From Alphaproteobacteria bacterium (lineage in GTDB: Bacteria > Pseudomonadota > Alphaproteobacteria > GCA-2731375): a DNA stretch of 64,000 nucleotides. Positions within the stretch are counted from its first letter, which is position 1, and each line of letters begins with the position of its first letter. Under the pieces are notes generated by a model. The model saw only the letters and a program-made list of their open reading frames with translations. It searched no databases and was not told the origin of the DNA. Shown here in pieces: positions 37,848-43,207 of this stretch. The position numbers and the translations under genes were made by a program. The stretch lies in assembly GCA_965225945.1 (NCBI GenBank), contig CBDDBZ010000037.1, positions 160,001-224,000 of the forward strand, in the 5' to 3' direction.

Positions 37848-38008
37848 GACGTGTGCTCCCCGCTGCCCATGGCCGCGTCGCGGGGAGTGTAACAGTGTTA
37901 GCGGTGGTTCCAGGGTGCGCTTATATGGTGCTCTTTTTGAGCGGTCGGTGGCGGTTGGCTGACGGGATGCTTTTGGGCTTGGCTGATTTTGTTTCGCGCT
38001 GTGGCTAT

Positions 38009-38905
38009 TCAGTCGAGGGGCCGGTCATCGATCTGGAGCGGTTCGCCGGCGCGGTCGCGCATGAGCATGTCGTTCCAGTCCAGGCCGTCGAGGGCAGGGC
38101 GCAGGCGGACGACCCTGCTGTCGTTTCGGATGAGCCGTGCCGCGGCGTCATCGCCCTGGCGGGTGGCGTCGTAGGCGCAGAAGATCCGGCCGGGGTTCCA
38201 GGCCTCGATCCATTCGGGGAGGCTTGCGGTGGCGCCGCCGGTTGAGACCACGGCGCATCCCTTGCGCCCGGCCGGGACGAGGTGGAGGGAGAGGACCGAC
38301 AGGGCGTCGATTGCGTTCTTGGCGAGGATGACGGAGTTCGGCCAGTCGGGTTCCCACGACATCCAGAAGCCGCCGCGCGCGGCGGCGCCGGTCGGCGCGA
38401 GGCGGCGTGGCGCCGCGGCAGGGACGATCTCGGCGCCGAGAGCCTCGCCGGCCGCGTTTCGGCGGACGAACACGGCGTTGCCGTGGCGGTCGGCGTAGAG
38501 CAAGCCGAGGTCGCGGCACAGGGCGACGAGCACATCCGCGAGGCCGCGCTGCTCGACGAGGTAGCTCTGGATGGCGGGCCAGTGGCGGTCCGGGCACGGC
38601 GGCTTCGGGTGGCGATCGGCCGGGAACCGGTCACGGCACGGCAGTTCCGAGAAGAAGCCGAGGGCCTCGGGCACGGTGCACCGGCAGGCATGGATTACCA
38701 GGTCGATCGCTCCGCCCCCGCCCTCGCCGCGCAGATGTTCGTAGAACATAAAGCCGTTGATGCTGACGACGGATCCGGGACGCCTCCAGCGCGCGGCATC
38801 GGTGGGATCGCGGCGGTAGCCGAGGCGGCGGACGACGTCTTCGAGGGGATAGCCTCGCAGGGCCTCGGCCCGCACCCGCCGGTCCCAGAGGCGGGGACCA
38901 TCCAT
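38009..38905 (-). CDS. DUF3991/Toprim primase-like protein with degenerate acidic motifs
   Basis: GGGAIDLVIH, YLVEQRGL...LYADRHGNAVF, AIDALS, STGG, AYDA and DWND motifs. Confidence 0.8.
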   Translation of the reverse strand: MDGPRLWDRRVRAEALRGYPLEDVVRRLGYRRDPTDAARWRRPGSVVSINGFMFYEHLRGEGGGGAIDLVIHACRCTVPEALGFFSELPCRDRFPADRHPKPPCPDRHWPAIQSYLVEQRGLADVLVALCRDLGLLYADRHGNAVFVRRNAAGEALGAEIVPAAAPRRLAPTGAAARGGFWMSWEPDWPNSVILAKNAIDALSVLSLHLVPAGRKGCAVVSTGGATASLPEWIEAWNPGRIFCAYDATRQGDDAAARLIRNDSRVVRLRPALDGLDWNDMLMRDRAGEPLQIDDRPLD

Positions 38906-38907
38906 GG

Positions 38908-39696
38908 CTACGCCGGCGGCGGTTCCCCGCGGTCCTGCGCGCCGGCCTTGCCGGCTCGCCGCCGGCGGCGCTCGGCGCTGCGCTGCTTCTGGCGTTCCTC
39001 GGCCTCCTTGCGGCGCCAGGACTCGGCGTCGATGGCGATGATCTCGGCGTTGTGGACGAGGCGGTCGACCAGGGCGACGAGGCAGGCGGCGTTGGGGAAG
39101 GCCTCACCCCACTCGGCGAAGGGCCGGTTGGTGGTGATTATGGTGGAGTTCTGCTGGCTGCGGCTGGAGACGATGTTGAACAGCAGATCGGCATGGCGGT
39201 TGCTGTAGGACAGGTATCCGACCTCGTCGATCACCAGCAGGTGCTGGCGGGCGTAGAAGCGCAGCCTGCGCTGAAGCAGGGTGTCGCTGTCGAGGGCGGC
39301 GAGCTCGCCGAGCATGCTGGCCGCGGTGGCGAAGCGCACGGTGTGGCCCTCGAGGACGGCGCGGTGGGCGATATTGGCGGCGATGGTCGACTTGCCGACG
39401 CCGTTTGGGCCGACCAGGACGACGTTGGCGGCCTCGTTGAGGAACTCGAGGCTCATGAGATCCTCGACGGCCATGCGGTCGCAGCGGCGCGGCCATGCCC
39501 AGTCGAAGTCGGCGAGCGGCTTGAACTGTCCGAGGCGGGCGTCGCCGAGGCGGCGCTTGAGGCTGCGGCTTCGCCGTTCCTCCTCTTCCCAGGCGACCAG
39601 CGCAGCGGGCCAGTCATGCCCGGCGACCTCGCCCCAGTGGGCGGCGAGGCCGTGCAGGCCGAGCGCCCGGGCACGGCCCATGAGGGTATCGTTCAT
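38908..39696 (-). CDS. istB: IS21 helper AAA+ ATPase
   Basis: [12 protein letters not shown] (Walker A), LLVIDEVGY (Walker B), ITTN and DRLVH; ATGA overlap with istA. Confidence 0.95.
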
Positions 39697-41198
39697 TGCT
39701 CGCTGTCCTCCTCGGGTTCGCCGGCCAGCCCGTCGTATCCGACGAGGTCGTGATCGCGGACAGTGATGTCGCGCACTCTCGGATCGCCGGGCAGTTCGAC
39801 GGGGATGGGCGGGGGTTGGTGCCGCAGCTCGCGCCGCCGGGTCAGGCTCAGGCGCACGGCGTTGGGATGGGGAACGTCCCGCTTCAGGGCCTCGTCGATG
39901 GCCGCCTCGAGCTCGGCGGCGCCGTAGGCGTCGAGGAGGCGCAACAGGGCGGCGACGGTGGCGCCTATATAGCCGCCGCGCTGGGCGGCCTCGGCGAGCA
40001 GGCGCTCGCTGTTGGGCGCGGCCTGGACCAGCCGGTCCTGGCCGCGAAGGCGGCGGGCATGGCTCTTGCGCCTGACCAGCTCGGCGATGTGCTCGGGGTT
40101 CTCGATGCGGGCCGCCTTGTCGAAGCTGCGCGGATGGCTGGCGATGACGTCCACACCGTCGAGGATGCGCACCTCGTCGAGCGTCGCGACCACGACGAGG
40201 GTGCGCCGCACATGGGTGTGCGGCACGCTGTAATCGTTGAGATCGAAGCGGGCGTAGGGGGTCTTGCCGATGGCGACCTCGACCCGGTCGTGGTCGGGGA
40301 AGGGATCGCCGGGCAGCGCGATGAGAGAGCCGCGTTCCCGCTCGAAGGCCTCGCGCACGGTGATCGAGCGGTCTTCGGGCCAGGGGCGGTCGGCGGCGAT
40401 GCCGTGGCACCAGGCCAGGGCCTGGGCGTTGAGATCGTCGATATCGCGCCACCGGCGGGCGGCGAAGAAGCTGGTCCGGACATAGCGAATCGCCCGCTCC
40501 ACGCGCCCCTTCTCGTTGCCGCGCGCGACCGCGACGGGCTTGGGCAGGAAGTGGTAGTGGCCGGCGAGGTCGAGGATCCGGGGATTGAACCGGATGGCGG
40601 CGCCGCGGCGCTCCAGCACGACGCTCTTCAGGTTGTCGTACCAGAGCTCGCGGGGCACGCCCTGCCACGCCTCGAAGGCTTCGACATGGCCGCGCAGGAA
40701 GTTGCTCATCCCGGCGTCGAGGTAGAAGCGCAGGAAGATCCGCCGCGAGTAGCTGAGAACCATCACGAAGCCCATCAGGCGGCGCTCCGCGCGGCCGATC
40801 GTCACCTTGCCGAAGTGTCCCCAGTCGACCTGGGCCTGCTCGCCGGGAAGGGTCTTGAGGCGCAGATAGGCCTCGGCCACGGGCCTGGGCCTGAAGTGGC
40901 TGAGCAGATGACGGAAGTGGTCGCCGCCGCCCGGATAGCCGCGTTCGCGCACCATCTGGTAGAGCCGGCTGGCGGGCAGCGTCGGCCAGGATGCCAGCGT
41001 CTCGGCGATGAACGGCACGTATGGATCGATCATCGACGGCCTGGGCGACCTCGCGTCCCGGGGCTCGCCGGCCGCGGTGAGGAGGCGCTCGACGGTGTAG
41101 CGATGCACGCCGAGCTGGCGTGTGATCGTGCCGACCGTCCACTTCTCGACGTGATACAGGCGCAGGATCTCCGCGCGGGTCTCCTTGTCGATGGTCAT
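39693..41198 (-). CDS. istA: IS21 DDE transposase
   Basis: [20 protein letters not shown] and KGRVERAI motifs. Confidence 0.96.
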
Positions 41199-41635
41199 CT
41201 CACCCCCTTTCCCGTCGGGCGCAGCCCCGGATAGACCGCCTGCCCGCAGAACCGGCCGCAGCGATCGCAGCGGAAGACCCTGGCGGGCCGCTCGTGCCCG
41301 AAGGGCCGTGTTCCGGGACGCCCTGCCGGCGTCCGCACCACAACAGGACGCCGCCGCGCGGCGGTCAAAGGGTGATGCGTCACTTCCTGCCCGCGGCGCC
41401 GATTCACCGGCGTCCGGCGCCGCCGGCGTTCGCGATAGCGCCGCTGGCGCTCAGCATGCTTGTGACGGCCCCGCCGGCTGTTCTGGTAGCGCTGCCCGGC
41501 ATGGCGCTGCGATCGCCGGCGCACCCGATCGCTGCAGCTCCGTGAACAGTAGATGTTGCCGTGGTCGCAGTGCCGGCAGAGAACCACCTGTTGATGGCAC
41601 GAGGCGCAGTTGAACAGGCGGGCGGTGTTCTTCAT
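41195..41635 (-). CDS. Cys-rich basic putative Zn-binding protein inside the IS21 element
   Basis: CASC..CRHC..CSRSC, Arg-rich helix and C-terminal CDRCGRFC; stop overlaps the istA ATG. Confidence 0.7.
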
Positions 41636-41865
41636 CGCGCAGCCGATGAGAACGGGGTGGACCCACGCCCAAACCCGCACGATACTGCGCATATGGGTCG
41701 TGCCTTGCATGGCTCGGGGGGTGCGGTGCCGGTCGTTGCCAGCAAGCAAACGGGGCCGGCGCCGCATCGTTCTCAGCGGCCCGAGTGTACTCCCGCGGCT
41801 CCCCTTGTCAGGTCCGCGGAACCGCCGCCGCCAGCCAGCCAAAACAGGAATCGAGACGCCCGCCC

Positions 41866-41933
41866 GCGGTGGATAAGCAGCCCGCCGCCGCCAGACTCTT
41901 GGCGGTCGCCGCGGCGGGCTACTTACCCACCGC
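41866..41933 (-). other. Long hairpin in the IS21 leader region
   Basis: 23-bp arms at 41866-41888 and 41911-41933 match 21/23; inner stem CGCCA-n6-TGGCG. Confidence 0.75.
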
Positions 41934-42182
41934 TGCGCCGAGCCAACTCCCGCCTGCAAACCACGCAGCTACAGCGCCACGATGCCCGATGTCGCTGAAA
42001 TCACCATCTAAGCGCGGTTTTTCATCGCCACCGACAGTAACAGAACCGCTTTTGCTATTCATCGCAAAACCCGGGCCGTCGTGTGTCGCAATGGCACGGG
42101 AATCGCCCGCCGAGGCGATTGCTATGATATCGGAGGGAAATATTCTACCGCCGGTCGGAAACGGCCGGTCGGCATTCCGAAA

Positions 42183-43207
42183 GGCTCAATTCGTGAATTG
42201 TATGCGTCACCTTGTTACGGCGGCGGCGAGGCAGGCTCGGTCATTGGCGCCGGGGGCGAGGCCGACGAGGTGGAACCAGCTCAGGTAGTTGTCCAGATAG
42301 CGGGTGGCGATGCCGCGGCGGGGACGCAGGAAGTCCTTCAACCGGCTGTGGCGGCTGTTCACCGTCTGCACATGCAGATCGCCCCGAACCCGTTCCCCCA
42401 TCGAGCGGTTGAGTGCTTCGTGGCTCACCCCGAGCGCGGCGGCGCACGGTGGGTAGCTCGCGCCGCCGTCGGAGACCAGCAGGGCGTCCTTCGCGACCAC
42501 CGGGTCGAGGGCAGCCGTGAGCGCCGCCGCATCGACCCTGGGCAGCACCGCGCTGACCGTCGTTCCGCTCCGGTCCGCCGCCATGAGAACCGGTACCTGC
42601 TCGCGCGAGAGGCCGCGCTTCTTCGCCTTGCCGCCCCGCCGCCGTGCCTTGCGCCCCAGCCCGCGCGCGCCCTTCCGGCTCTCCAGGACGTAGGTCTCGT
42701 CCGCTTCCACGATCCCCTTGAGCACCTCCGAATCGCTCCGCGCCGCCGCCAGAAACCGGTGACGCCAGCGGAACGCCGTGCTCACCGCCACGTCGCAGCG
42801 CGCCGCCGAGGCCTTCACCGTCTCCCCCTTCGCCAGCGACGCCCCGAACGACAGCCAGCGTTCCTTGTGGTGCAAGCCCGACAGCGGCGTACCGCTCAGC
42901 GCGTTGAAGGTCCTGCCGCAGCCCTTGCACTGGTAGCGCCGCAGACCCCGCGCCATACCGCGCGAAACCGCCCCTTCGCTCGCGCAGTGCGGACAGCGCC
43001 GGGCCTCGTCCACACCAAGCTCGATCGCGGCCTTCGATGCCTCGCCCTCGCTCCGGCCCGACAGCACCGCGAGCGCCTCGCGCCGCTGCGCGCGCGTCAG
43101 CCCGCGCGCCGCCGAAAGCCACACCTGGAAACCCTTGCCGTCCATAACCCAACCTCCTGACGTTCCAGGCACTCTATCACTAATGCATACAATTCACGAA
43201 TTGAGCC
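42183..43207 (-). mobile_element. IS1595-family element (ISPna2-like), 1025 bp
   Basis: Perfect 23-bp TIR GGCTCAATTCGTGAATTGTATGC; flanks TTCCGAAA / TTCAGAAA match 7/8. Confidence 0.93.
42207..43145 (-). CDS. IS1595-family transposase
   Basis: CPHC..CKGC Zn ribbon, VEADETY, VSDG and HVQTVNSRHSRLK..GIATRYLDNYL motifs. Confidence 0.93.
   Translation of the reverse strand: MDGKGFQVWLSAARGLTRAQRREALAVLSGRSEGEASKAAIELGVDEARRCPHCASEGAVSRGMARGLRRYQCKGCGRTFNALSGTPLSGLHHKERWLSFGASLAKGETVKASAARCDVAVSTAFRWRHRFLAAARSDSEVLKGIVEADETYVLESRKGARGLGRKARRRGGKAKKRGLSREQVPVLMAADRSGTTVSAVLPRVDAAALTAALDPVVAKDALLVSDGGASYPPCAAALGVSHEALNRSMGERVRGDLHVQTVNSRHSRLKDFLRPRRGIATRYLDNYLSWFHLVGLAPGANDRACLAAAVTR

Follow-up and report, generated by a model that had tools for sequence, protein, structure and literature searches.

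An active four-gene IS21-family insertion sequence encoding a cysteine-rich protein and a primase-shaped, probably non-catalytic Toprim protein

Introduction

Insertion sequences are taken to encode only what their transposition needs, and IS21, the model for a transposase activated by an AAA+ ATPase, is canonically ~2-2.6 kb long and possesses two genes, istA and istB. What are two further genes doing in an IS21-type unit of 4141 bp? The unit is located at positions 37896-42036 of a 64,000-nucleotide stretch of an alphaproteobacterial genome (assembly GCA_965225945.1, contig CBDDBZ010000037.1, positions 160,001-224,000), and this whole stretch is called the window in the following. Besides istA and istB, the unit contains a gene for a cysteine-rich protein and a gene for a protein with DUF3991 and Toprim domains. 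An initial annotation of the window took both additional genes to be probable functional parts rather than random cargo, with, e.g., target selection (as performed by TniQ) or priming during copy-out transposition as their possible roles. Here we show that the window harbors an active IS21-family insertion sequence, i.e., a mobile unit with four translationally coupled genes instead of two, and we consider what the two additional proteins may do in it.

Four genes between IS21-type ends

The unit starts at 37896 with TGTTAGCGG and ends at 42036 with CCACCGACA. It has TGT...ACA tips and is flanked by a 7-bp target-site duplication, GTAACAG, found at 37889-37895 on the Toprim side and at 42037-42043 on the Cys side. 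The termini form imperfect inverted repeats. The repeat at the istB/Toprim-side end (37896-37935, plus strand) starts with TGTTAGCGGTGG and matches the reverse complement of the repeat at the Cys/istA-side end (41997-42036, minus strand), which ends with ...CCACCGACA; when aligned, the two have in common the TGT and a GCGCTTA(T/G)ATGGTG core at positions 22-35.

All four genes are located on the minus strand in the order Cys-rich open reading frame (ORF), istA, istB and DUF3991/Toprim gene. The Cys-rich ORF (41195-41635, 146 amino acids, ATG at 41635, stop at 41195) overlaps istA (39693-41198, 501 amino acids) by ATGA, istA overlaps istB (38908-39696, 262 amino acids) by another ATGA, and the TAG of istB is followed by CC and then by the ATG of the Toprim gene (38009-38905, 298 amino acids), i.e., the istB stop lies 2 nt ahead of this ATG. 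The ends, the duplication, the gene order and the junctions had all been described in the initial annotation and can be read directly in the sequence. The Cys-rich frame could be extended to a TTG at 41959 (254 amino acids); the start at ATG 41635 is preferred because the homologues start there.

IstA and IstB of the window are ordinary members of their families. IstA, a DDE transposase, matches the IS21 transposase model NF033546 (E 6.7e-74, 249 bits, cut-off 160) and, furthermore, PF22483 and rve. IstB, the AAA+ helper ATPase, matches PF01695 (E 1.7e-53) and NF038214 (E 2.1e-60, 204 bits, cut-off 200).

Multiplication of the complete unit

The genome containing the window (39 contigs, 6.27 Mb, GC 0.663) possesses 19 full-length copies of the element with 99.4-100% identity, as well as two interrupted copies and a few fragments. 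All 19 full copies carry the four genes within their ends (4141 bp), and all 19 have the same Toprim-side end point as the window element (37896). A copy ending directly after istB, which would have spoken against the initial annotation, was not found among the copies of this genome. Target duplications were detected at 17 of 20 sites (eight of 5 bp, six of 6 bp and three of 7 bp). They represent 16 distinct duplicated sites, two copies having identical flanks and being apparently located within another repeat. The whole 4141 bp, including both additional genes, has recently multiplied to about 20 copies. Six of them share a variant of the Toprim gene that is 6 nt shorter and remains in frame.

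The 16 distinct sites reveal neither a target consensus nor a composition bias (site GC 0.65-0.67 versus 0.663 for the genome). Furthermore, a TniQ-like domain was not detected in either additional protein by Pfam, NCBIfam or fold searches, and for the Cys-rich protein these searches yielded neither a family nor a fold. The proposed TniQ-like role in target selection thus finds no support here.

Near-identical copies of the element are present in sequencing runs from eight studies. In one RNA library (X4), a single 4171-nt contig covers 37896-42036 with three differences, and in another (X16) a contig of 2367 nt bridges the Toprim-istB-istA junctions; in two more (X17 and X18), the contigs cover no more than 10 and 11, respectively, of the 30 bins into which the element was divided. 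As such contigs show neither strand nor level, and carry-over of DNA is possible, they are a weak indication of expression. No joined-end junctions were found in the RNA-library contigs, the table of joints being empty.

Conservation of the additional genes

When species-representative genomes were scanned with the Toprim protein, four loci were retrieved (L009, L010, L011 and L012). Three of them, on contigs of metagenome-assembled genomes (MAGs; L009-L011), keep the Cys-IstA-IstB-Toprim order, with identities to the window proteins of 77% (Cys-rich), 79-80% (IstA), 84-90% (IstB) and 65-66% (Toprim). In the fourth locus (L012), a contig edge leaves no more than the C-terminal part of a Toprim gene. 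In addition, the metagenome contig L047 contains IstA-IstB-Toprim up to its edge. The Toprim protein is otherwise rare: among 400 other genomes sampled evenly from the phylum, one alone gave a match (G053, a weak one), and among 32 other genomes of the order, only one of the same genus (G428), in broken pieces. Toprim proteins of the window clade (the P0052 and P0014 clusters and L009-L011) are found in records titled as Chloroflexota, Alphaproteobacteria and Pseudomonadales MAGs, so the element family appears to have crossed phylum borders.

The ratio of nonsynonymous to synonymous substitution rates (omega), calculated pairwise between diverged elements by the Nei-Gojobori method (NG86), which is a rough measure in a genome of 66-70% GC, amounted to 0.03-0.26 (istB), 0.22-0.40 (istA), 0.24-0.49 (Cys-rich gene) and 0.41-0.69 (Toprim gene); within the near-identical pair L010-L011, Toprim omega was 0.90. 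In each of the nine pairs tested by codon bootstrapping (five of them Toprim pairs), none of 200 replicates reached an omega of 1. With omega below 1 and these bootstraps, both additional genes are therefore coding and constrained. As judged from sequence comparison, they hold their position and are under purifying selection in diverged elements.

A primase shape with a lost active site

The Toprim protein matches PF13154 (DUF3991, E 6.4e-9) and PF13155 (Toprim_2, E 1.1e-4). Its AlphaFold2 (AF2) model has a mean predicted local distance difference test score (pLDDT) of 81, and the top Foldseek matches of this model are DnaG primases (2au3, E 1.1e-6). VIA alignments of residues 94-298 gave Z scores of 10-12.7 overall, with 12.7 for 2au3 (root-mean-square deviation 3.5, 188 residues aligned), 12.5 for T7 gp4 and 11.6 for E. 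coli DnaG (1dde). Furthermore, residues 5-90 align with the zinc-binding domain of DnaG (1d0q, Z 6.1). The modeled protein has, in short, the two-domain shape of the DnaG/T7 gp4 primases, a DnaG-like mini-primase fold, and its description as primase-like in the initial annotation is borne out at the level of fold. A sequence-profile search with 24 Toprim homologues against the chains of the Protein Data Bank (PDB) gave no matches at E <= 1.

However, a primase shape is not a primase active site. Residues 1-73 contain no Cys at all; since the DnaG zinc ligands presumably lie in this N-terminal domain, the zinc site (CHC2) is gone. The same Cys-free N-terminus is present in the Toprim proteins of the five-gene family described below, judging from L102. 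The residues that we take to be the Toprim catalytic motifs, a Glu and a DxD, are eroded as well: the window protein has K196 in place of Glu and D246-A-T248 in place of DxD. In an alignment of 180 family members, divided into the window clade (83) and others (97, with <53% identity to the window protein), position 196 is Glu in only one of 82 window-clade sequences and otherwise K, G, A, D or N, and position 248, where DxD has its second Asp, is Asp in none of 78, with T, P or S instead. In the other 97 relatives, Glu is retained in 96 of 97, the first Asp in 96 of 96 and the second in 95 of 96. As Glu and the second Asp have been lost across the whole clade, priming by the window protein during copy-out, as initially proposed, is unlikely. 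Very probably, to judge from these residues, the protein is primase-shaped without being a primase. On the other hand, the members of the Toprim family have in common ~30 invariant positions that lie outside the active site (e.g., W232, R264, R269, P270, W277, N278).

A predicted complex of IstB with the Toprim protein scored 0.00, which we count neither for nor against binding.

The Cys-rich protein

The Cys-rich protein consists of an N-terminal CxxC-x6-CxxC-x6-C-x3-C array, a basic helical hairpin, a KVTHH motif and a C-terminal CxxCxxxC. C10, C13, C23, C30, C34, V-T-H, C123 and C126 are invariant, and C20 and C130 are nearly so. It has no match in Pfam or NCBIfam. Of its 218 homologues at E <= 0.001, none carries a functional name, and no Pfam domain was found among the 120 matches listed. 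Its AF2 model (pLDDT 71.6) retrieved no PDB structure with Foldseek at E <= 0.001, the best one being YacG at E 0.9, and a search of the ESM Atlas gave unnamed clusters alone.

Sister elements without the Toprim gene

The next-closest IstA clade (56-63% identity) is found on plasmids of Aromatoleum, Cupriavidus, Rhizobium and Mesorhizobium and in the genome G159. IstA with >50% identity occurs in only two genomes (G352 and G159) of the even sample of 400. In the four plasmid records (NC_006823, NZ_AP025174, NZ_CP032692, NZ_CP050299), IstA and IstB are 58-63% and 58-67% identical to those of the window, respectively. All five sister loci studied (L013, L128, L139, L140 and L141) possess a Cys-rich ORF upstream of istA, with 33-60% identity over the matched part; note that it is unannotated in the four plasmid records. 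The Cys-rich gene therefore marks a wider IstA subclade, and the DUF3991/Toprim gene is specific to the narrower clade of the window. At the position of the Toprim gene, four of the five sister loci (the four plasmids) have a different ORF of 61-73 amino acids that is coupled to istB. This small ORF (L013:5209-5421, L139:4726-4932, L140:4717-4902 and L141:4739-4960) shows a conserved W(T/S)PEQA-AV-ELL motif and has no Pfam match in the two cases scanned (L013 and L139).

The initial annotation had itself named a prevalent lack of the Toprim gene in close relatives as evidence against a functional role. Such relatives do exist in the clade with 56-63% IstA identity, whereas the nearer L009-L011 carry all four genes.

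A five-gene family in metagenomes

A profile built from 24 Toprim homologues retrieved 80 metagenome contigs. In 69 of the 80 loci, istB directly precedes the Toprim gene (three loci have no upstream sequence and eight no adjacent istB), a figure that tells how often this Toprim family adjoins istB rather than how frequent such IS21 elements are, the loci having been retrieved by Toprim. Most of the 80 contigs represent one family of ~5-kb units (L052-L125) whose tightly packed genes all lie on one strand: Cys-rich (~160 amino acids), ParB/KorB-like, IstA, IstB and DUF3991/Toprim. The ParB/KorB-like ORF of L102 has 298 amino acids and matches PF08535 (E 1.1e-5). Where >=950 nt of sequence precede istA, the ParB-like gene is present (34/34 loci); where >=1500 nt do, the Cys-rich gene is present in 32/33 loci. 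In contrast, the window element has no ParB/KorB-like gene, its Cys-rich ORF overlapping istA directly.

Of 32 loci, 24 have inverted repeats of ~45-90 nt (score >=40) on either side of the five genes, and the bracketed units span 4.76-5.23 kb. The repeats are built of two GCGCTCA...TGACCC copies and contain tandem ~22-bp repeats, and multiple terminal repeats are the style of IS21. No convincing target duplications were found around the five-gene units, many of these contigs being collapsed repeats. IstA and IstB of this family are 25-30% identical to those of the window, and Glu and DxD of its Toprim protein are intact. IS21-related elements with a predicted ParB-like protein and an apparently intact primase are common in metagenomes. 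Profile comparison of the Cys-rich proteins of the window and the five-gene family gave E 0.025 in one run, and hhalign gave E 0.0014 with a probability of 17%; these scores hint at homology of the two proteins but are too weak to establish it.

Origin of the Toprim gene

Trees were calculated for IstA and for the Toprim protein with 66 sequences each (the IstA tree by a quick search, with SH-aLRT support only). In the IstA tree, the four-gene clade of the window (support 99) has the Cys-IstA-IstB clade as its sister (joint support 100), and two-gene IS21 elements surround the pair. The five-gene family forms one clade there, on a separate branch of length 1.8. In the Toprim tree, the proteins of the window clade (support 100, stem 0.63) are nested among active-site-intact relatives at 39-50% identity, and the five-gene proteins form a separate clade (support 100) that groups with Mob-fused and Tn3-adjacent ones. 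From these separate placements, the simplest reading is that a primase-like gene was captured right after istB twice.

Other settings of the family are mobile elements as well. The plasmid database PLSDB contains 76 matching records (identity <=32%); among the best 40 of the 76, most are MobV relaxase/plasmid-recombination genes and the rest stand-alone DUF3991/TOPRIM genes. In L083 and L120, Toprim relatives are fused to Mob_Pre. Other relatives follow directly after a Tn3-family transposase (DDE_Tnp_Tn3, E 5e-140; L056:1475-5461), directly after an AAA_22 (TniB-like) ATPase at a contig edge (L050:3-1933) and after a tyrosine recombinase (L049:480-2408). The Toprim gene of the window was drawn from this pool of mobile-element primase-like genes, and the primase-like module may accompany several transposon types.

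The genome with the window contains a Toprim paralogue too (64% protein identity, DUF3991 plus Toprim; C30:9340-10134 and C38:350-1144, i.e., L014 and L015). It is located in a duplicated 5.2-kb stretch near other repeats, downstream of an ORF with a weak UPF0236 match and not next to istAB, and may be a remnant of a related element.

Leader and surroundings of the element

Between the Cys-side end and the Cys-rich ORF there is a leader of ~400 nt. It contains a hairpin (41866-41933; 26-nt arms with 88% complementarity, 16-nt loop; found by a repeat search) and, just downstream on the minus strand, a promoter-like, sigma-70-like site (CTGACA-16-TACACT, 41784-41811, minus strand) identified by its match to the consensus alone; this is the single such match in the element, where 0.3 would be expected. 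A search of the element against Rfam gave one sub-threshold, chance-level match, on the leader hairpin.

Right beside the element, an IS1595/ISXO2-type transposase is encoded (window 42207-43172). Furthermore, an ordinary IS21 with two genes (IstA 31% identical to that of the window) is present in the same genome in ~45 copies, and a ~1450-bp repeat occurs in at least 17 places.

Discussion

We consider it fairly probable that both additional proteins of this active four-gene element are accessory factors, the Toprim protein being a non-catalytic one. According to the sequence and model data, the window Toprim protein would no longer make primers and would persist for another purpose, most likely as an adaptor that binds DNA or the ATPase and is linked to IstB or a transposition intermediate. 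It could act after target capture by IstB, e.g., by passing the strand-transfer or copy-out intermediate to the replication machinery of the host. The Cys-rich protein, produced just ahead of IstA, may be a zinc-binding, basic nucleic-acid-binding factor that probably acts on the ends of the element or controls its own expression. For the five-gene family with its intact active site, real priming on the transposition intermediate would be the likeliest job.

Several observations weigh against this interpretation. Recent common descent could account for part of the conservation of gene order, since only three or four independent sequences represent the four-gene relatives. Of the four genes, that for the Toprim protein is the least constrained (omega ~0.5, with the roughness of the estimate mentioned above), and low constraint together with lost catalytic residues, the identification of which is our assumption, also fits cargo or a slowly decaying gene. 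The sister IstA clade lacks the Toprim gene, which is therefore not needed by such IstA/IstB pairs. In two copies (C39:304481-308870 and C27:58997-63443) the Toprim gene is interrupted by 252-bp and 332-bp pieces of other genome repeats, and in a third (C36:218929-223064) it reads in two frames. The figures from metagenomes come from loci chosen for their Toprim gene. Finally, the tie of either protein to transposition is drawn from sequences and models. What the initial annotation claimed in calling both genes functional parts thus holds insofar as both lie inside the ends of one transposing unit, keep their order and are under apparent purifying selection; for the Toprim gene it is tempered by the sister clade.

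The most serious competitor is that the Toprim gene, and perhaps the Cys-rich gene as well, is cargo acquired from a plasmid or integrative element, with a benefit for the element or its host unrelated to the chemistry of transposition, e.g., by helping establishment once conjugative transfer has taken place, by interfering with rival elements, or in defence and counter-defence. This reading would explain why the nearest relatives outside IS21 are plasmid mobilisation proteins (MobV, among the best 40 of 76 PLSDB records; Mob_Pre fusions in L083 and L120), why the gene is missing in the sister IstA clade and why it evolves fastest of the four; moreover, the ParB/KorB-like and Cys-rich partners in the five-gene family are reminiscent of plasmid leading regions. 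However, two Toprim lineages occupy the identical spot, coupled to the istB stop, in two very distant IstA lineages, and this translational coupling (overlap or 2-nt gap) has been kept. Members of this family are also found behind a TniB-like ATPase and behind a Tn3 transposase, which argues for a link to transposition machinery rather than random cargo. Moreover, the catalytic residues have been lost and yet purifying selection is seen across 83 sequences, so that a cargo primase, being non-catalytic yet selected, would need another function anyway. Cargo is, in our judgement, rather unlikely. If, instead, the window-clade gene were a relic on its way to a pseudogene, i.e., once an active primase, then dispensable and still open just because the copies are young, the clade-wide loss of Glu196 and Asp248, the long stem branch (0.63), the highest omega of the four genes and the broken copies on C39, C27 and C36 would be expected. 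But the clade spans 54-100% identity, with a synonymous divergence (dS) of 0.25-0.70 between members, the listed proteins (250-330 amino acids) are open full-length frames, omega is significantly below 1 in all five Toprim pairs tested, the ~30 positions outside the active site remain invariant, and the 6-nt length variant of six copies stays in frame. Decay therefore appears improbable.

A different idea takes the additional genes as a replication or maintenance module of an excised circular form. Elements of this kind would be transposon-plasmid hybrids, in which the primase initiates replication and the ParB/KorB-like protein of the five-gene family partitions or regulates, and the window element would be a reduced derivative. 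IS21-type elements act via joined-end or circular intermediates, some small replicons are primase-initiated, and a ParB/KorB-like gene (in each of the 34 loci with enough upstream sequence) does lie together with an intact primase inside IS21-type ends. We nevertheless regard this as highly improbable, as we saw neither a replication origin nor an initiator nor a circular form, the table of joints in the RNA contigs is empty, and the window element, with its dead active site and no ParB-like gene, has reached ~20 chromosomal copies. Less improbable, although still doubtful, is the idea that DnaG-like DUF3991/Toprim proteins may be dedicated partners of transposition ATPases, recruited by IS21 (twice), TniB-type and Tn3-type elements, and may couple an ATPase-bound intermediate to DNA synthesis. 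Such a system would be a transposon-encoded primosome, in which the pair of IstB (DnaC-like) and a DnaG-like protein would mirror, by analogy, the interplay of helicase loader and primase; the window clade would be a derived state, with coupling but without catalysis, and the Cys-rich and ParB/KorB proteins would be further parts of the machine. In published cryo-EM work (PMC11208146), IstB is described as bending the target and activating IstA in the solved transpososome, and the helicase loader DnaC as its closest relative. This kinship makes a DnaG-like neighbour suggestive.

The full-text literature (ISfinder and TnCentral lying outside this scope) yielded no published account of IS21, IstA or IstB together with a primase, Toprim, DUF3991, ParB, Cys-rich or third gene. 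The few homologues that bear a name in records of the National Center for Biotechnology Information (NCBI) are called "hypothetical protein". The portions of PMC7371123 that deal with IS21 concern ordinary copies only, and a BREX paper (PMC12839542) was rejected as a false match, "iSTAND" in the matched text having been read as "ista". IS21-type lineages that keep one to three further genes under selection stretch the textbook picture of an insertion sequence, the more so as one of the kept genes encodes a primase-shaped protein right behind a DnaC-like ATPase. An element-encoded primase would provide a direct handle on how copy-out or replicative intermediates are passed to DNA synthesis, with the intact and the catalytically eroded families as natural, ready-made controls. 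Furthermore, since units of 4-5 kb carry beside their IS21 genes a Cys-rich ORF labelled as hypothetical, annotation of insertion sequences misses their true ends.

Comparison with known systems

Tn7 (TnsC with TniQ/TnsD), Tn5053 (TniB with TniQ) and Mu (MuB) resemble the window element in that each encodes additional proteins besides a DDE transposase and its dedicated ATPase. The window element differs from them in that no TniQ-like domain was detected and no target preference was seen at its 16 sites. A primase-like partner is not known to be part of the Tn7, Tn5053 or Mu systems. With DnaG and T7 gp4, the window Toprim protein shares a zinc-ribbon-like N-terminal domain followed by an RNA-polymerase domain with the Toprim fold. 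In size it is comparable to the T7 gp4 primase fragment, and its pair of Pfam domains is that of the MobV fusions. Unlike DnaG, it has no CHC2 zinc site, Lys instead of Glu, Thr instead of the second Asp and no helicase-binding C-terminal domain, and it has no sequence-level match to solved structures.

The five-gene family resembles the window element in that its first gene encodes a Cys-rich protein and its istB is directly followed by the Toprim gene, and differs by the additional ParB/KorB-like gene, the intact Glu and DxD, a different Toprim lineage and distant IstA and IstB. The sister plasmid subgroup likewise has a Cys-rich ORF before istA and a further gene coupled to the end of istB, which is, however, the ORF of 61-73 amino acids instead of the 298-amino-acid Toprim protein. 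With canonical elements (IS21, IS5376), finally, the window element has in common the IstA and IstB model matches, istA located before istB with an overlap, the TGT...ACA ends, the imperfect inverted repeats and duplications of 5-7 bp. What sets it apart from them is its length of 4141 bp and its four genes, with the Cys-rich gene ahead of istA and the DnaG-like gene behind istB, both of them coupled.

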